A stretch of DNA of 30,386 bases from Clostridia bacterium (GTDB taxonomy: Bacteria; Bacillota; Clostridia; UMGS1883), in contig JAZUPX010000113.1 in assembly GCA_045605405.1 (NCBI GenBank), positions 1 to 30,386 on the forward strand, read 5' to 3'. The position numbers and the translations under genes were made by a program. The notes under the pieces are model-generated. The model did no database searches and was not told the origin of the DNA. It saw only the letters and a program-made list of their open reading frames with translations. Each line of letters starts with the position of its first letter. The first letter of the stretch is position 1. Shown piece after piece: positions 10,608 to 23,600 of this stretch.

Positions 10608-11526
10608 ACCGTTTTGCCTCATGGTTGTAAGTGATTCCGAGGTCTTTCAGCCTTCCCGAAAGGCGTGCACGAAGTTCCTTTTCGCTTGTTAGTCCATGGG
10701 CAAGCCCCTTGATTTTTTCTACGGCGCCGGGAACATCCTCGGCATTCTCGATGGCTGCAATAATTTTTTCACCCTCTGCCATGGCTGCATTGTATGCTTC
10801 CTGTAGAGGACGAACCGCATCATTTTCTGCCGCTATGTTTGCTTTCACCTTGTCGAACAACACAGACAGGAAGTTATTGAGCATCCCATCCTCAAGGCTT
10901 GGAATTTCTATCATGCCGTTAATGCCGTAAGAAGACTTTGCGGAATATTCCTGCGTGGGCGTAAAGCAAAGATACCGCTTGTCCCCAAGCATTTGAAAGT
11001 ATGCACCAAGGTCCGCAGGCTGCCAAACCATTTCACGTGCCGCACCTTCACACATAAGGTCATAAACAGGATTACCCTCTCTGTCCTTATCCTTTGTTGT
11101 GTGGAATATGTATATCACGTTATGGGTCTTTTTAAGTTCACTGGAGAAACGCAAAAACTCACTTTTTACAACGCCGTACCCCTGTATAGATATGCCGCCG
11201 CCCTTTTTGCAAGCGGAAGGATTATTTCGCATTGCCCAGTCTTTCAGAAGATCAATAAATGCGCCAGTCGTATCGATTGCTACAGTTTTATAAGCGGCAA
11301 ATGCCGGAGTCTTGATATCCTCCAAAAGTTCTTCATAAGTCTTTACCATTACCGTGTCACGCCGATGTGCCGGGTTTACACGCTTTACACCTCGGTCAAC
11401 GTCTACCAGAACTACGTCCGGAGCCGAAAAAGCAAGGGTTGTCTTGCCTACGCCCGGTAGACCGCTGATAATCATAATGATGTTTTCGTCCTTAAAGCTC
11501 ATGTTTTCAGGTTTTACGATTGCCAT
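10594..11526 (-). CDS. Sak4-like AAA ATPase / single-strand annealing recombinase
   Basis: ISGLPGVGKTT Walker A, VLVDVDRG, VAIDT Walker B, IYIFH; adjacent to exonuclease and SSB. Confidence 0.85.
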   Translation of the reverse strand: MAIVKPENMSFKDENIIMIISGLPGVGKTTLAFSAPDVVLVDVDRGVKRVNPAHRRDTVMVKTYEELLEDIKTPAFAAYKTVAIDTTGAFIDLLKDWAMRNNPSACKKGGGISIQGYGVVKSEFLRFSSELKKTHNVIYIFHTTKDKDREGNPVYDLMCEGAAREMVWQPADLGAYFQMLGDKRYLCFTPTQEYSAKSSYGINGMIEIPSLEDGMLNNFLSVLFDKVKANIAAENDAVRPLQEAYNAAMAEGEKIIAAIENAEDVPGAVEKIKGLAHGLTSEKELRARLSGRLKDLGITYNHEAKRYEQK

Positions 11527-11541
11527 AATAAAAATTCCTCC

Positions 11542-11769
11542 TTAAATACTCGCCCGTCTAAAATAATAGCCGAACATATTAAATACCTCTTTGGGGCTCA
11601 TCTCGTCCACGCATTCCGGGCAGATGATTTTCCCGTCAAAATCCAAGTATCTTTCTCCTTCGTAAATCTCACCTTCGCATAACGTGCAGCTATGTACAGC
11701 CCGCCTTTTCTTCTCGGGTTCATAGCCCATTCTGTGCAGAATGATTTCCACATCCGATAAAATATCCAT
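11542..11769 (-). CDS. Small zinc-ribbon protein
   Basis: CTLCEGEIYEGERYLDFDGKIICPECV, RBS AAAGGAG. Confidence 0.8.
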   Translation of the reverse strand: MDILSDVEIILHRMGYEPEKKRRAVHSCTLCEGEIYEGERYLDFDGKIICPECVDEMSPKEVFNMFGYYFRRASI

Positions 11770-11917
11770 CGTTTTTCTCCTTTCCTCGTCGTCACGTGCT
11801 TCACCGGAATCGTTTTCCTATTCGGAAAACTTAACCATGTTCCGCCGCTCCTCCTCTCCCCTTAAAATGCATCCGCATTTTCGGGGACCCCGTAGGGCAA
11901 AAAACATTCGCCCGTTC

Positions 11918-11946
11918 TTGACATTGCTTTAAATTTCTGCTATACT
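11918..11946 (+). promoter_or_regulatory. Consensus sigma-A promoter, antisense to the early operon
   Basis: TTGACA (11918-11923), 17-nt spacer, TATACT (11941-11946). Confidence 0.8.
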
Positions 11947-12027
11947 AAAGATGTCATAAAATAAGTGTGCCTCCGGGCACGCCTCGTATTTGTTGCCGCA
12001 GATACGGGGCATTTTTTTTGCAAACAT
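11929..12027 (-). CDS. Possible 32-aa peptide (MFAKKMPRICGNKYEACPEAHLFYDIFSIAEI); alternative TTG frame 11940-12032 gives 30 aa
   Basis: Strong RBS GGAGGTG at 12038-12044 with no longer ORF to serve; frame ambiguous. Confidence 0.35.
   Translation of the reverse strand: MFAKKMPRICGNKYEACPEAHLFYDIFSIAEI
11953..12019 (+). ncRNA. Putative ~65-70 nt antisense small RNA
   Basis: Lies between the promoter above and a terminator. Contains hairpin GTGCC-TCCG-GGCAC (11966-11980) and the terminator hairpin. No ORF with an RBS. Confidence 0.55.
11981..12019 (+). terminator. Rho-independent terminator of the antisense unit
   Basis: GCCTCGTATTTG-TTGCCG-CAGATACGGGGC (12 bp with two G-U) followed by A and T8. 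Confidence 0.75.
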
Positions 12028-12089
12028 TTCAACTTTTCACCTCCAAACTTTAATATTTGTAAGCAAATATTCTAAGTATACTTGCAATC

Positions 12090-12374
12090 TTATGCTTCTT
12101 TTTCCCCTTTCTCAGCTGCTTCCGCATCCGCAAGTTCCACAATCGCTTCGCAAATATTAAGACGAAGCCATTCTTGCGCCGTCCGAAGAACCTCTTCCGC
12201 GAATTCTTTCTGAATCTTCTTAAGTGTCGGACTAAAGCTCTCGAAATCCTCGTCACCAAACATGCCATCCAACAATTCCCTTGCTTTTTCCATGCCGCTC
12301 ACAAACGCAAAATTCGTTACGTTCAAATCCTCTTTTTTGTACTCTCCGTTTTCAATAAGTCTTACAAAATCCAT
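12090..12374 (-). CDS. Hypothetical phage protein (94 aa, acidic)
   Basis: TAATG coupling to the upstream ORF; RBS AAAGGAG. Confidence 0.75.
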   Translation of the reverse strand: MDFVRLIENGEYKKEDLNVTNFAFVSGMEKARELLDGMFGDEDFESFSPTLKKIQKEFAEEVLRTAQEWLRLNICEAIVELADAEAAEKGEKEA

Positions 12375-12550
12375 TATAAATCCATCTCCTTTTCGTTCAT
12401 TTCTTCCGCTATTATTTCTGCTTCTCTTTTGTTTTCTGTGTACTCACCGGCAAACATTAAATTCCCACTGTGTACCGGCTTTGTGTCATCGATAACTTTC
12501 GCCGCGATATATCCCGCCATTGGGTTATGTAATACATGCCATTTACCCAT
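12374..12550 (-). CDS. Hypothetical protein, 58 aa (MGKWHVLHNPMAGYIAAKVIDDTKPVHSGNLMFAGEY...)
   Basis: Hand-translated; perfect RBS AAGGAGG; stop overlaps the next start. Confidence 0.75.
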   Translation of the reverse strand: MGKWHVLHNPMAGYIAAKVIDDTKPVHSGNLMFAGEYTENKREAEIIAEEMNEKEMDL

Positions 12551-12575
12551 TTTATTCCTCCTTCTTTTTATGTTT

Positions 12576-12757
12576 TAGCGATATGCTCACTTTGTTCGCG
12601 CGATATATTTGTTTCACAAATGCGATATAGCCTCATTTTATTCAGCTGCGATATGATATAAATTCACACATTGGGTCCCGAAGGGACATATCGCATCGAA
12701 GATATATCGTGTTCCGAAGGAACATATCGCAAATTCCGTCAGGAATTTATATCGCTA
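12576..12757. repeat. Structured intergenic element: 4 x GCGATAT + 4 x inverted ATATCG(C/T), separated by hairpins
   Basis: GCGATAT at 12578, 12600, 12622, 12648; ATATCGC at 12688, 12724, 12749 and ATATCGT at 12704; spacers self-complementary (see findings). Confidence 0.9.
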
Positions 12758-13018
12758 TTTGATGATTGGAACAACAATCCTGTCGCATGGATGCAGCACT
12801 GATAAATCCTGTTCATTCACACGCTCAACCTTTATTTTCCAATCATCAAATCTTCCGTGCCCAACTTCCTCCCAAATGCTCCAAAGGCTGTCCCCTTCCT
12901 GCACGACTACTTCTACTGTGGTATATTCCATGCATGCGGCTTTCACAAACGAAGTCACCGCAAGCACAATGAGAACCACCGCCACAACTGCCGCCATGCG
13001 TTTCTCTTTTTTACTCAT
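12755..13018 (-). CDS. Membrane-anchored LysM protein, YneA-like
   Basis: N-terminal TM helix (AAVVAVVLIVLAVTSFV), then LysM pattern VVVQEGDSLWSI...N...L.P.DRIVVP. Confidence 0.75.
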   Translation of the reverse strand: MSKKEKRMAAVVAVVLIVLAVTSFVKAACMEYTTVEVVVQEGDSLWSIWEEVGHGRFDDWKIKVERVNEQDLSVLHPCDRIVVPIIK

Positions 13019-13191
13019 GCGGCATGTCCTCCTTCCATCATCTTTTCCAGTTCCTTCATAACCGCCATAGATTCGGCAAACTCGCCTTCATACCCTCGCA
13101 ACGGTTTTTCCATCTTGTAATCCTCCGAAACCTGGTATGCCTTTTCTTCCAAAAGTTCATATGCCATCTTGAGCGCCTTGTCTTTGGTCAT
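13015..13191 (-). CDS. Hypothetical protein, 58 aa (MTKDKALKMAYELLEEK...)
   Basis: Hand-translated; ATGA overlap with the LysM gene; RBS present. Confidence 0.7.
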   Translation of the reverse strand: MTKDKALKMAYELLEEKAYQVSEDYKMEKPLRGYEGEFAESMAVMKELEKMMEGGHAA

Positions 13192-13197
13192 TTTTCC

Positions 13198-13374
13198 TCA
13201 AACACTCCCTTCTTTTTCCTTTAGTTCTTTTCTCTGCTTCTGCCATTCTTTGAATTTTTTCTGATTTTCCGGATTGTTAAAATGTTCAATCAAAGCTCCG
13301 TACAAAGAACTACCAATTAGACGCTTTGTGAGTGGACTTATTTGACTGAGATCCAATTTTATTTCCGCTTCCAT
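13198..13374 (-). CDS. Hypothetical protein, 58 aa (MEAEIKLDLSQIS...FNNPENQKKFKEWQKQR)
   Basis: Start refined to ATG 13374 after AAAGGAG; typical small early gene downstream of cro. Confidence 0.7.
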   Translation of the reverse strand: MEAEIKLDLSQISPLTKRLIGSSLYGALIEHFNNPENQKKFKEWQKQRKELKEKEGSV

Positions 13375-13388
13375 AAGTTTTCTCCTTT

Positions 13389-13583
13389 CTACTCTTCTTC
13401 CGCAATTTCCGTATGTTCTGCCGCAAACAATATCATTTTGCTTGCAATTTCCTTGACCGGCATTCCCGTGCACCGCTGATATTCCATCAGAACGTTTGCC
13501 GCCTCACCCGTTACCCGGATAACGCCGTCCCGAATTTTGGCCGTGCTCTTCGGATAGACCCGAAGAATGAGTTTTTCCTGCAT
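13389..13583 (-). CDS. Small protein, possible ribbon-helix-helix DNA binder (64 aa)
   Basis: Start refined to ATG 13583 after AAGGAGG; VIRVTGEAANVLMEYQRCTGMPVKEIASKMILFA resembles a beta-alpha-alpha RHH pattern. Confidence 0.6.
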   Translation of the reverse strand: MQEKLILRVYPKSTAKIRDGVIRVTGEAANVLMEYQRCTGMPVKEIASKMILFAAEHTEIAEEE

Positions 13584-13587
13584 TTCT

Positions 13588-13776
13588 TCACACCTCCTTA
13601 AATAATTCATCAATTGTGCAGCCAAGAACCTCGGCAAGTGCCGGGAGTTTGTCTGTTCGCGGCATTGTTTCTCCAGTCTCCCACATAGCCACCGTGCTCT
13701 GCCCGATTTTCAGCATTCTTGCTAAATCCGTTTGTTTTAGTCCTGCTTTTTCACGAAGCTTTTTAATAATATTCAT
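13588..13776 (-). CDS. cro: Cro-like HTH regulator
   Basis: IKKLREKAGLKQTDLARMLKIGQSTVAMWETGETMPR; divergent from cI. Confidence 0.9.
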   Translation of the reverse strand: MNIIKKLREKAGLKQTDLARMLKIGQSTVAMWETGETMPRTDKLPALAEVLGCTIDELFKEV

Positions 13777-13793
13777 CTTTGCCCTCCTCTCGC

Positions 13794-13919
13794 ATCAGCT
13801 TTCTTGATGTTATGCTTTTATTATAAATCAGCTTTCTTGATATGTCAAGCGTTTTTTAAAAATTTTTTCAATTTTATTGATATTGTATTTACTTTTGGGG
13901 AAATATCAGTTATATTGAT
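13794..13919. promoter_or_regulatory. Lysis/lysogeny switch: four ATCA-N7-TGAT operators and divergent promoters
   Basis: ATCAGCTTTCTTGAT at 13794-13808 and 13827-13841, TTCAATTTTATTGAT at 13867-13881, ATCAGTTATATTGAT at 13905-13919. Leftward promoter TTGACA (13848-13843), 17 nt, TATAAT (13825-13820) with one operator in its spacer. Candidate rightward TTTACT (13888), 17 nt, TATATT (13911). Confidence 0.85.
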
Positions 13920-17694: not shown

Positions 17695-20600
17695 TTATCT
17701 ATACGGGTTCTTTTTCCACGTTGTATTGACGCTCTGCCATAACGCGGCCTTTTCTTCGTAGGACAAGCCTTCGAGTAGTTCTACAGCTTCCCTTGCTTCA
17801 TCTTGCGTATATGTGCCGTACTTTCCCTTTTTCGTGGGTTTATCCACTTTGGCAAGGGCTTCAACAAAATCTGCATATATACTGCTGTCTATGCCGTTTT
17901 CATATGCATAGTTTGCGCCTTTGCTTTCGTTATTAAGCAAGAACAATCCCCATTCCGCGTCACTTGTTAAATTAAGCAACTTCATTGCCGCGGCTTTTTC
18001 TTTAACGCTTGTTCCATCCTTTCCGTCGCTTACCATCTCCTTGGCAAGCTGCCACAAGGTATATTCCGTTTCATCGATGCCAAACTTCATCGCTTCTACT
18101 CTGATTTTTCCCATTGCTTCACTAGTTGACGTTAAAAAGTTATTGAGGTCAGCTTCTGCATTTTTTCTCTGCACCGCAGTTGCAGTTTTCCACAATCGAT
18201 TTTGTTTAACTTTGCTAAGGCTACTCTTGTACTTTTTCTTGCTTGCATCCGCTTTATTCATGCGAGCTTCTATGCCGCCCTCTAAATCATCCTCTGAATA
18301 GCCATTCTTTACAAGGTCTTTGTAAATTAACCTATATGCAGCTTTGTCGTTCTTGTAGGCATTAAAGAGAATGTCAATAAAGTTCTTGCTGTTCCCTGCG
18401 TAGTTGATATCAAGCATCCCCTTTTCCATACGATACTGCATAAGGGGGCTGTCCGTTATGGTTGCTACAGACATAATAAGAGACTTGATGTCCCTCTTTA
18501 CGTTTGCAACGGGCAATCCGTAAAACCTTGCTATTTCTGCGAAAAGCTGCGCTGATGCTTCGGTTATCGTGTACTTACCCGTGCCTGTAACCGCTTTGTA
18601 CATATTCACGATAGCATTGTAGGTCTTTGCTATTGCTTCTGTGTCCATACGCTTAACATCATAACCTGCAAAAATTGACATAGCATCCTTTGCAAACGGA
18701 ACATAATTAAGCGGGTTTACCGTATCGCCCAAATTGGAGTTCATCAAATTTGTTTCTTCCCCATCTCCAACGAAAGCGGCAGTCCATTTTTCCCAGTAGT
18801 CCTTTTCCGTGTCATCGTCTCGCATTGCATCAATGATTGATTGTGCGCAAGCGTTTATAATCCCTGCTACCGCAAGCGATACCGCCGTTCTTCCAAGTTG
18901 AGATACAGCCCTTTTACGCGCATCCCCCTTCCCGTTCATCGCATCGTATAACGCCGATACAGCCATATTGTACTGTTTTGTAGGCTCACCCATAAAGGAC
19001 GTTGCCATCTTTGTTAAAGCGTCAGGGGAACGCATTAACTGGCTTCTCTGCAATATGCCGTCAACCACTTGCGTATGGTCTACAATTTCCGTAAACCTTT
19101 TTGCCACAGTTTCATAATACGCCTCCGAACCGACTTCAAGTTCTTTATGCGTTGCCTTTGTTTCCGCTTCTACCGCGTTCCACAACTGACCCCACGCAAG
19201 ACTATCAGCCATTGACGCACCCCACATGCCGACTTGTTTTGCTTTTTCAAGCTTGCTTGCATTGTCGAAAAGCACATCCTTCATCTGCCTGCCTGTGTTG
19301 ATGTCGAAATATCCCCAATCTTTCCATTGTGCAATAGGGGCATACTTCTTAGCCTTCGCAAAGCCTTTCAACGGTCTTACAGCACCTTGGGCCAGATAAC
19401 GGGCATCTATCATATCAAGCGCCCTTAGAATCGCCGTAGGCTGTTGGATAATAACGCGAAGATTGGCGCCAACGGATGCCGCTTTGTAACCGCCTATGAA
19501 CTTATCAAACGGATTCATATTGTCTGTGCCCTTTACACCTATTGCAATATCCGTCAAAAGCTTTTCAAGGTATTCCGAACCGACTTTTGCGCCATGTACG
19601 GTATCAAGGATACCTTTTACAGTTCCTGTCCTTGCGCCCTCTTCCCAAAACACAAAGTTTCTGATGCGATTTATATCTTCACTTGCGCCGAGCCAGGCAG
19701 CGTAAGTTGCCATGTCCGAAGAATGAGAAGCAAAGGTATCAAAGATACTGCCTATACGGACAGAAGTATTTGCGTGAGGCAGTGTGCCTTTTGCCATGCC
19801 TTTGTTGGCAACGGACGTTACAGATGTATCTTTTCCTATTTCGCTGCTTATCTCCTGCTTGTTCGTTCGAATTGTCCAATAGTTTTTCTCAAGGAATTTT
19901 TCATAGTTATAGACCTTTATACTGGCTTCATTGCCATATGCACTTAAAACGGTAGAAACAAACTTTTGCAATTCATCTGCAATCTTCTTTTCCTTGTCCG
20001 TGAGTTTCGACAACGCTGTCGAGATCTCATCAGCCGAAATGTTTCGTATTGGCTCTACTCTTGTGTTTTTCTTTAGTCCTTTACCATCGGTCACATCAGG
20101 AAGTATGCCGCCAACCATAATGTGCTCTACTGCCTGTCCGCGCTTCATAAGCACATACAGTTCCATGAGTTGTGCCGTTGTCAGTTGAACATTTTCACCG
20201 CCGAGTTTTACGGTATGCATGGTATTTTCAAGTACATTTACATTTACATCCTTTAATGTATCATGTGTGAATTCTGCTACCTCTTTCATGATGCTTATGT
20301 GCTTGTCTTGTGCGTCTCGCATCATACGGAAGATAGAATCACCTGCATTACCTAAAAAATGAAAGTATGTTTCAGGCGTAAGCATATTAAGTGTCAATGT
20401 TGTTTTGCCCTTACCTAAAACGCCTTTTAGCTCCGTTCTTTCTTTTTTTTCTGCGTTATCCGCCCTTAATGCTTCTGCAAACGCTGAAATCGTTGCAAAC
20501 TTCCCTTGTGCAAATGTTTTGTTTGCTGTGCTTATGCTTGCTTCCACCGCCCGTATTGTTTGCCATACAGTTTCAAGCTCACTTGATGTCATGTCTACAA

Positions 20601-23600
20601 TCCGCTTGTCCGCAAGAGAGATTACATTACTCAGCAAACCACCCTCAACTATCAAGTCAGGGTCTACAACCACCGAGAAAGCAATATTTTTGTAAATATC
20701 CCTAAGTTCATTAAACACTTGCGTTCTCTTTGCCGGCAAGCCATCATCATTCTTTTTGTATGAACCGCTTTCTGTGTCGTAAGTGTAATTGCTTTCAAGG
20801 TTGATGGATTCAAGCAGCGCCGCAACCGCGCCCCGCAACTCATGTGGAATGTGCTGATTGTCAGTAGGATTCACAAGCTTTTTGCTAAGGTCTCTTGCAT
20901 GTCTCATTATCCGTGCGCGGATAACCTTCGCCTTTTGGCTTTCACTCATTTTGGAGATTGCCGCGCGGCGCTTTTCTTGTTCCTTCCGGACTTTATCATC
21001 CCTCTGCTGCCTTAATTTATCAATTTTCTTTTTGGTTTTTTCCTTCTGTAATTCAATGAGCTTCTTGATTCTCTCATCCTTCTGCTGCCTTATCGATTCA
21101 GCCTTTTTTTCACCTTTGATTTTTGCTTCTACGACCCTTCGTTCTGCCTTGTCGGCAAAAGTAGGCTTTGCTTGCGGAATGTCAAAGAAACGGGAAGTAA
21201 GGTCATTTGCGAGGTGCATGGAAACTCGTTCAATCTGCCCGTCAAACGGGTTTGCCTCTGTTGTTCTGATGCTGTCAAGCACTTCTACGATGCGTTCCAA
21301 CTGGTCTGCTGAATTGGTTTGTTCTTCCTCGTTGAAAAACTCAGGATATAAGGAAGATAACTCCTGATAAACAGAATCAATGCTCCGTCCGTCATTGGTG
21401 AAGTTCAGCCGCCCCATATTTCTTTTGCGAAACTCGTTAAAGTTTTCATATACAGAAGGTATGCTGTCAAATCCTTCATAGAATTTAATGCGTGTAGTTC
21501 GCAAATAATCACGAAGGGCCTTATTCTCCTGATATAAATAATCATCCTTAACAAGCGCGTTTTTTACAATTTCCAATGCCACCTTGTAAGCTCTGCTGTA
21601 TACATCATCCCATACTGCCGGATGTCCGTCCTCGCCGTTCGCCATGTACCGATACAAGGAATCAATAGAAGCAAATGTTTCGTCATAGTCCGCATGACTG
21701 CTGTACTCCTTCAGAATGTCACGGGTCATTTTTGCAAGCTTCTTCGGGTCTGCCTTCGGAAACTTTGTAACCTCAAATTCACCTTTTAAATGCTCGATGA
21801 TGTCTAAAAGGTCTTTTCGGTCTTTTGCGCTCATGCCGTTGTTGGTATTTTTGAGGGAGAAAGAAACATCAGGTGCGCTGTTAACCTTAGAATCTTTGAA
21901 ATATTCCGACTGTGCTTCGGTTAAAGTGTTGCCTTTGTTGTCCTTTAAAGAATAGCTCTTTTGCTCCGTTCTGCGTAAATTTTCGATGACATTCCAGAAA
22001 GCTGGGCTTCCGTTGCGTTGGGATTGTCCCGGCAAAACTCCAGCATTTTGATTGTGTCCTCCGCCACCCAAGTTTCCCGTATTATTTTGGCTACTGTTGA
22101 CAATTCGCATCCAACCGCCGCGAGATACCCAGTTAACATACGCTGATTTTCCGTTAACGCTCTTGCCATTTTCTATTTCCTCCAATAAACCCATTAAAAT
22201 ATCTAATTCGAAGCTTCCGCCATCGCCTTTTCTTTCGTACAGAATAGTAGGATTGCCAGGTGTTGCCGTACTATATATGGCAAACAAAGCTTCCCCGTCA
22301 ATTCTGCCTTTATACCAACATCCATCCGTATCTGCGATTCTGTACGGTTCGTGATTATCAACCTGACGAATCCAATTCTCTACCATTCTGTACTGTCTTG
22401 CGTTCAAATCTGTGCGCCATTTCAGCGAATGGCTTACGTTATAATTATAATCCTCTTTTGCCTTAATTTCAAGATTTTTTGAAGTTTTTGACTCCGTACT
22501 CCTTGCCTGTATCGCCTTTTTGTTCTCCACAGCCTTTGCGAAAGCCGTCTCAAACATATCACGAAGTTTTGTAATTTCGTCGAGTTCCGCCTGTCCCTCT
22601 GCTCTTTCTCTGCCGCTTTTCCCCGTAAGGAAATCACTAATTTTCTTTATAATGTTTTTGAGAAAATCAACGTACTTCCTTAAGCCTTGCTTTGCCTTTT
22701 CGTCCGTGCCGTTAACAATTCTGTCAATAGCATCGTGGAATCTCGCTTCATCGTTATTATAAAGGTACAGAATGTTGTTTGCCGACAACTCTTCCATGGC
22801 TTCTGCAAGGGATATTTCTACATCCTGCGCGGCGTATGCATTTCGCTTTTCGTCTGCAAGAGTAAAATTTGAAGGCTCATTCCCGGCAAGATGATTGTAC
22901 ATTGCATATACGAACGCGCTACCTTCTTCCGGCGCAAGGTCAACCACTCTGTGAAGTGCCATTTCGTGCGCCGCATGGAATACAATAGAAACCTTCTGTC
23001 GGTTACCGTCTGCCCCGATTTCTCTTTCAAAATCAAAGTCAATAGGTACTTCCCCCGTTTGTCTGTTATACTCAGCGTTGCCTTTCAGCCCTTTTGCCAC
23101 ATATGATTTTACGCCTAAGCCTTCCGCCATTTGATTGAGAATGCCGACTTGCGTTTCGGTAACATCGCTCGGAAGGTTTTCAGCAAGGAAGCCGCTTTCC
23201 ATATTCACAACTGCGTTTCTAAACCTTTCCTTCGCGGCAAGGTCTTGCATTTGTCTGTCCATCTGCCCTGCTGTGAATGCATCCGCTTGCGCTTTGGAAA
23301 CAAACGCATTTTCAGCCTTTTTAATGTCCAAATCGGGCTGTTGAAAGCCTGTCACATATGATGCCTTGACCTCTGCCATTGCCTTAGAGAATGTCGCGCC
23401 TTCTTGATTGGAAAGATTCGCAACAAGCTTTGCACCCTCTTCGCCAAAGCCGGTGACCTTCCTTACCTCATCTGCAGTTATCTCCACGTCATACCCTGTA
23501 AGTCTGTCAAGCACTTCGTCGTTCACTTCGCCACGCCGCCGCGCTTCCAGAAGAGAAACGCCGTCCGTTCTGTTCCGTCTTGCAACAGCTTCCCTTGCCG

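Follow-up and report, generated by a model that had tools for sequence, protein, structure and literature searches.

A Gut-1-like element of heptamers and hairpins in the early operon of a Clostridia prophage

The prophage locus and the anatomy of the element

The window, that is, the whole 30,386-nucleotide stretch of Clostridia contig JAZUPX010000113.1 analysed here, is a prophage, the lysogeny side of which, on the plus strand, carries a cI-like repressor, ImmA and a serine integrase. A single ORF of 2687 amino acids (17695-25758, minus strand) adjoins the integrase. The early operon lies on the minus strand and comprises, in this order, a cro-like gene, small ORFs, an 87-aa LysM/YneA-like gene, the element studied here, a 58-aa ORF and a 94-aa ORF, followed by AAA_24, ERCC4, primase-zinc-finger and VapE-like genes. 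From a perfect TTGACA-17-TATAAT early promoter at 13820-13848 of the minus strand, transcription is expected to run through cro, the small ORFs and the LysM-like gene and on into the element, which would be read in its sense direction. The LysM-like gene (12755-13018, minus strand) matches Pfam LysM weakly, and its product scores 39.9 bits against the NCBIfam model of YneA (PRK14125), the cut-off of which is 60. YneA is an SOS-induced suppressor of cell division, and, by this resemblance, the LysM-like protein may be a phage-encoded division inhibitor made from the early operon. On the other side of the element, the 58-aa ORF (12374-12550, minus strand) has a strong ribosome-binding site and matches no family. 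Further downstream, between the 94-aa ORF and a 75-aa ORF, terminator-like hairpins are found on both strands (11965-12010), and their sequence is partly conserved in the closest related prophage, L083 (3680-3722).

The body of the element occupies positions 12578-12755, and on its sense strand, which is the minus strand of the window, it reads H1-hp1-H2-hp2-H3-hp3-H4-hp4-centre-H5-hp5-H6-hp6-H7-hp7-H8, where H stands for a heptamer and hp for a hairpin. The window contains the word GCGATAT 12 times, whereas 4.1 occurrences are expected, and none of 100 shuffles reaches this count. Exact copies lie on the plus strand at 12578, 12600, 12622 and 12648 and on the minus strand starting at 12688, 12724 and 12749, and the remaining word is a variant, ATATCGT, at 12704-12710. 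In other words, 12578-12755 is taken up by seven exact heptamers and one variant heptamer with flush hairpins between them, so that counts, shuffles and coordinates all bear out the eight heptamers and interposed hairpins of the preliminary description of this DNA. The boundaries given there hold as well. Namely, H1 overlaps the stop codon of the LysM-like gene (12755-12757, minus strand), the G of the stop codon being the first base of the heptamer, and the ribosome-binding site of the 58-aa ORF, GAAGGAGG, begins 13 nt past the last heptamer. The outer pair, H1 and H8, does extend to 9 bp (TAGCGATAT / ATATCGCTA), and the heptamers, spaced by 15-26 bp, are indeed not helically phased. At 12504-12510, within the 58-aa ORF and 67 nt beyond H8, there is a further exact heptamer, the ninth, oriented like those of the 3' arm.

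On the sense strand, the element consists of a 5' arm (12675-12755), a centre (12655-12674) and a 3' arm (12578-12654). The 5' arm is made of the heptamers H1 (12749-12755), H2 (12724-12730), H3 (12704-12710, here ACGAUAU) and H4 (12688-12694) and of the flush hairpins hp1 (12731-12748), hp2 (12711-12723), hp3 (12695-12703) and hp4 (12675-12687), all four of them with C-G-closed loops and three of the four with a UUC triloop. The 3' arm carries AUAUCGC heptamers, H5 (12648-12654), H6 (12622-12628), H7 (12600-12606) and H8 (12578-12584), together with hp5 (12629-12647), hp6 (12607-12621) and hp7 (12585-12599). The spacers had all been described as self-complementary, and most of them are flush hairpins; the exceptions are hp7, with two internal mismatches that amount to tandem G.A on the minus strand, and hp5, the stem of which is 3-4 bp long and closes an 11-13-nt loop with the conserved sequence GAAUAAAAUGA. 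The 20 nt in the middle, on the other hand, are not a plain linker. Namely, 12655-12665 is perfectly complementary to 12743-12753 (11 of 11 pairs), that is, to the last five nucleotides of H1 and the 5' strand of hp1, and makes up the 3' strand of a long-range helix, P1. The segment 12743-12753 has two pairing options, a local one within hp1 and one with the centre. Both the four-plus-four convergent arrangement of heptamers and the P1 complementarity are present in the window copy.

Relation to Gut-1, dispersal and neighbouring genes

A permissive Rfam scan matched 12683-12757 of the minus strand to Gut-1 (RF01706) over the full model (positions 1-77), with 38.4 bits and an E value of 3e-6. 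The gathering cut-off of this family is 50 bits; no family gave a match at its gathering threshold, and none besides Gut-1 gave one below it. The score falls short of the cut-off because the heptamer differs, being GCGAUAU in the window and GUGAAAU in Gut-1. The Gut-1 consensus comprises three hairpins with GUGAAAU between them (RF01706), and at least three flush hairpins split by a constant heptamer of the form G-Y-G-A-W-A-U are found in the window too, namely four heptamers and four hairpins at 12675-12755 of the minus strand. What is more, the window copy aligns colinearly with 30 GCGATAT copies as well as with intermediates of mixed class (L047, L123), and the alignment of 45 copies also takes in canonical copies that score 50-79 bits. 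On these sequence grounds, the element is a relative of the known Gut-1 repeat of gut Clostridia, of the GCGATAT class, and the earlier statement that it belongs to no known RNA or DNA family was mistaken.

Like Gut-1, the window element is built of tandem short hairpins around a constant 7-nt word, and both are confined to uncultured gut Clostridia and are without known function. They differ in extent and in setting: the Rfam model describes a single arm, whereas the full unit has two arms, P1 and, when complete, an adjacent PF05635 gene, and the window copy, unlike the Gut-1 members, lies in a prophage. In the alignment with flanks of Weinberg et al. 2010 (PMC2864571, supplement), some members show forward heptamers and hairpins followed by inverted ones. 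Since the published flanks thus display the four-plus-four layout, the published motif is one arm of a larger unit.

The unit is widely dispersed. When 11500-13800 (2.3 kb) was searched against related genomes, only 12573-12756 (query positions 1074-1257) found matches: 46 of the 100 relatives, spread over at least 10 genera, carry the unit of about 185 nt at 70-83% identity, and none of the flanking phage genes matched in this search. In the 101-genome set, made of the host assembly (G000) and the 100 relatives, the Gut-1 model matches 58 genomes, 38 of them over the cut-off, with up to 36 matches per genome; many of these lie at the end of a contig, and many form neighbouring pairs with the two partners on opposite strands. 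Canonical copies stand behind a terminator, in many cases one that belongs to a tRNA gene. Contigs of four gut metagenomes, those with a label being from animal gut, cover 12563-12766 at 10-100 times the depth of the flanking sequence and stop at the borders of the element. The host assembly holds a single other Gut-1-like element, at C38:3338-3463 (L002, about 1503-1590), which stands just after a terminator and is a small two-plus-two GTGAAAT/ATTTCAC array. Many copies of the GCGATAT class (L054-L078, for example L057, L062, L064 and L076) have TATAAT on both flanks, the upstream one with a -35 box and a TG extension, which looks like insertion of the element between a -10 box and its gene with duplication of the box. 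These flanking TATAAT ends are missing from the phage copy. Tandem copies occur in L064 and L054.

Among phages, by comparison, matches were few. The element had no match in 50,697 deposited phage records, and at IMG/VR loci with three GCGATAT words, real elements were present in 3 of the 118 matches listed, most of the others being unrelated repeats of period 21. The AAA_24 protein had no relatives in IMG/VR and three in genome contigs, none of these with the element. In particular, the closest related prophage, L083, the AAA_24 of which is 94% identical at the amino-acid level, lacks the heptamer cluster: its LysM-like orthologue ends at the same place as in the window, and there follow a 5-nt gap and different genes. 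With a 5-nt gap at the corresponding site of L083 and with the unit dispersed in bacterial chromosomes, the element is not a feature of the phage lineage. A metagenome contig (run X2) joins 12106 to 12836 by 152 other letters in place of 12107-12835, which points to a variant phage without the element, the 58-aa ORF and the 94-aa ORF. Among the sequencing runs, the stretch was found in DNA metagenome contigs only, and in no RNA run.

In 6 of the 30 GCGATAT copies, an ORF of the PF05635/TIGR02436 family with a ribosome-binding site starts 10-17 nt past H8. PF05635 is a four-helix-bundle family to which the 23S-IVS proteins belong and which is similar to the protein Avd of diversity-generating retroelements (PMC10053308, PMC4990558). 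Its genes are multi-copy, with up to 8 per genome, and of the 101 genomes, 47 contain gene and element together and 34 contain neither, while the element is found alone in 11 and the gene alone in 9. In the 260 nt upstream of 36 PF05635 genes we read at least nine heptamer classes, each upstream of its own protein clade: ATATCGC (8 loci, 71-100% mutual identity), ATATCGA (8 loci), ATTTCAT (at least 9 loci), GTTATAT, ATTTCAC, ATACCAC, ATATCAC, ATTTAGC and ACTTCAC. Several classes coexist within single genomes. Since the words are uniform within an element and their class tracks the neighbouring protein, the simplest reading is that the protein reads the words; in other words, the heptamers are probably recognition words of the class-matched PF05635 protein, and the match between class and clade could partly reflect co-inheritance of neighbours. 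A search of the accessible literature found no paper connecting Gut-1 with the PF05635 family, and no PADLOC model fits the four-helix-bundle protein or the small ORFs of the window.

The element is placed differently with respect to the protein gene from class to class. Most GCGATAT-class copies are headed by a 5' hairpin, P0, and, further upstream, by an extended -10 promoter, and in this class the element is the leader of the protein gene. For the ATGAAAT class, the promoter of the protein gene lies beyond the element, its -35 box starting 2 nt past H8, and some other classes have the element placed between a terminator and the protein-gene promoter. The window copy has neither P0 nor a promoter or terminator before H1, where the LysM-like ORF abuts it directly, and no PF05635 gene was found in the window or in the host assembly, which is 90% complete, so that a cognate gene could be missed.

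Could the phage copy simply be a passenger without function, a repeat that recombination or insertion brought in and that plays no role in the phage? Its absence from L083, the contig in which other letters replace it along with its neighbours, the host assembly without a cognate protein gene and the scarcity of true elements among the listed viral contigs with the three-heptamer pattern all agree with this. Against it stands the state of the copy itself, which shares no more than 83% identity with any of the copies found and is nevertheless intact in structure: seven of the eight words are exact, P1 is perfect, and all hairpins are present, with compensatory differences relative to the nearest relatives. 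Exact heptamers and compensated hairpins at such a distance argue against a mere decaying passenger, and we regard this account as possible, though on the unlikely side.

Conserved pairing and the ladder of four-way junctions

What evolution conserves in the element can be read from 57 distinct copies, parsed in the sense of the window minus strand. The sequences of the hairpin stems vary widely, and of about 2250 pairs in them 2049 are Watson-Crick, 22 are G.U and 21 are A.C. Watson-Crick pairing that is kept despite such divergence means that the hairpins are under selection, without the excess of wobble pairs typical of RNA-only structures, and the proposal that selection acts on structure is thereby upheld. 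Used as a test of strand, the 22 G.U and 21 A.C pairs give no direction. The loops are C-G-closed; most of those in the 5' arm are TNC triloops and most of those in the 3' arm are GNA, and TNC on one strand reads GNA on the other. P1, in which the 11 bases that precede H5 pair with the last five bases of H1 and the 5' strand of hp1, has 644 Watson-Crick, 14 G.U and 3 A.C pairs in the same 57 copies. It is predicted by RNAalifold from 45 copies, with many double changes, and it explains why positions 1-2 of H1 vary freely (GC, AC, AT, TC). Tandem G.A pairs are confined to hp5 and hp7, on the sense strand. The excess of G.U in P1, together with the tandem G.A pairs, favours the sense strand. The RNA and DNA signals conflict, the hairpins being strand-neutral and P1 and the G.A pairs favouring the sense strand; for the GCGATAT class, we lean towards a sense-strand transcript as the form that would be read.

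The strand-neutral signal raises the question of whether the array acts as DNA, either as a cruciform or single-stranded mimic of a junction or as a set of iterons for the replication module. Stems that are Watson-Crick on both strands, loops that convert into each other between the strands, DNA folds with z of about -5, the position of the element between terminator and protein-gene promoter in other classes, and the primase, VapE and ERCC4 genes downstream would all fit such a role. P1 and the tandem G.A pairs, however, favour one strand, and the up to about 36 Rfam matches per genome lie mostly after tRNA terminators and not at replication genes. As to an origin, where the repeats would be kept together with the replication module, L083 has the same replication genes, AAA_24 among them, and no heptamers, and the spacing in the window shows no helical phasing. 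The junction mimic had been linked to the ERCC4 nuclease, and we find no tie between the two beyond their common operon. Taken together, we judge an action as DNA to be unlikely.

The most conspicuous proposal of the preliminary description was that nested pairing of the eight heptamers stacks three four-way junctions into a ladder, which in the early transcript would serve as an antiterminator, a processing or stability element or a protein sponge. Folding of both strands, as RNA and as DNA, recovers the nested ladder in each case, with z = -3.7 as RNA and -5.0 and -5.2 as DNA, all eight heptamers are mutually complementary, and the promoter at 13848-13820 predicts transcription in the sense direction. 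The comparison of copies speaks otherwise. With nested partners, 93.0% of cells are paired and the covariation score is 0.283, which at first sight is strong evidence; with deliberately wrong partners (H1-H5, H2-H6, H3-H7, H4-H8), however, the values are 92.5% and 0.285, and a per-slot table agrees. The apparent covariation arises because all eight words of one element belong to one class. In the commonest class H1 is ACGAAAT, a change that H8 never compensates. What is more, the consensus that RNAalifold derives from 45 copies consists of P1 and local hairpins and not of the ladder. In other words, the ladder has no partner-specific support and is a property of any element with eight identical words rather than a conserved fold. 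For the window alone this is a sobering outcome, given how striking the ladder is. The hairpins without a G.U excess, the absence of the element from the nearest prophage and the lack of any matching Rfam family besides Gut-1 weigh further against the RNA ladder and its use as an antiterminator, and nothing points to the suggested HK022 put-like antitermination, the likeness being limited to a structured RNA in an early operon. We think this account very improbable.

The window copy as a probable orphan of a protein-linked element

Having weighed the ladder, we come to the reading that we favour, with some confidence: the window feature would be an orphan, body-only copy, of the GCGATAT class, of a dispersed two-armed Gut-1-type element, and the class-matched PF05635 protein would be the reader of its words. 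The element, of about 185 nt, is found in gut and rumen Clostridia, Rfam Gut-1 corresponding to one of its arms, and its complete copies sit directly before a PF05635/TIGR02436 gene, in the GCGATAT class as a promoter-driven 5' leader. The four-helix-bundle protein of the matching class would recognise the heptamers as its words, and the flush hairpins would be spacers that set these words side by side. The phage lineage would have acquired such a copy, which is without promoter, P0 and protein gene, whether by loss or from the start, and which is presumably transcribed within the early operon in the sense orientation of the family. There it would most likely be a passenger and at most an intercistronic structure, and it would turn into a binding array only where the host produces a GCGATAT-class protein. 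One can go further and propose that PF05635 proteins are specific readers of 7-nt words set out between hairpins, in at least nine orthogonal word classes, and that the gene-less GCGATAT-class array in the early transcript of the prophage is a decoy or sensor, titrating or reporting the host protein during infection in the manner of phage-captured antitoxin-like RNA repeats, a proposal to which we give little credence.

Gut-1 has been listed as an RNA motif without function since 2010, and PF05635 is a large family with no known role outside diversity-generating retroelements. The class-by-class match of heptamers and proteins, over nine classes, gives each of these two orphans a concrete and testable partner. 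The gene-less phage copy, for its part, is a natural array without its protein and could reveal the effect of the array itself as well as whether the system is exploited by phages.

Several known systems resemble the one proposed here in part. Avd forms a basic pentamer and acts together with a structured RNA and a reverse transcriptase. It belongs to the same protein fold family as the element-adjacent PF05635 (PMC10053308), whereas no reverse transcriptase and no template or variable repeat was noticed beside the elements in the loci read, in a non-systematic way, and sequence-specific reading, which the heptamer classes suggest here, has not been described for Avd. The intervening sequences of 23S rRNA, as in Coxiella (PMC4990558), likewise combine a four-helix-bundle gene with a self-complementary element, in or beside it, at stable-RNA genes. 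Unlike the present elements, however, they lie within 23S rRNA helices, are cut out by RNase III and have no heptamer arrays, and the window copy, unlike them, has no S23p/PF05635 ORF. REP/BIME palindromes, too, are multi-copy, intergenic and hairpin-forming, often stand behind terminators and break assemblies, but they are simpler than the present element with its eight words, seven hairpins, P1, orthogonal word classes and linked small protein gene. Other candidates were set aside: heptad operators of the omega/WATCACW type, since here the words are split by hairpins and the arrays are multi-copy in chromosomes; the RNA repeats of type III toxin-antitoxin systems, with 10-30 copies per genome here and no toxin gene; a cluster of DnaA boxes, which match poorly; and an integron attC site, the architecture of which is wrong.

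Two variations on the complete unit may be mentioned. Single-arm versions, with four words and their hairpins directly before the ORF, are found at L132 (about 1400-1500), L241 and L265, and they include the GTTATAT class, the protein of which is 76% identical to that of the GCGATAT class. Some PF05635 ORFs are longer, about 384 amino acids (L066:329-1483, minus strand; L129; L138), and their C-terminal extension weakly matches Adenine_glyco (PF03352, E 0.0017).
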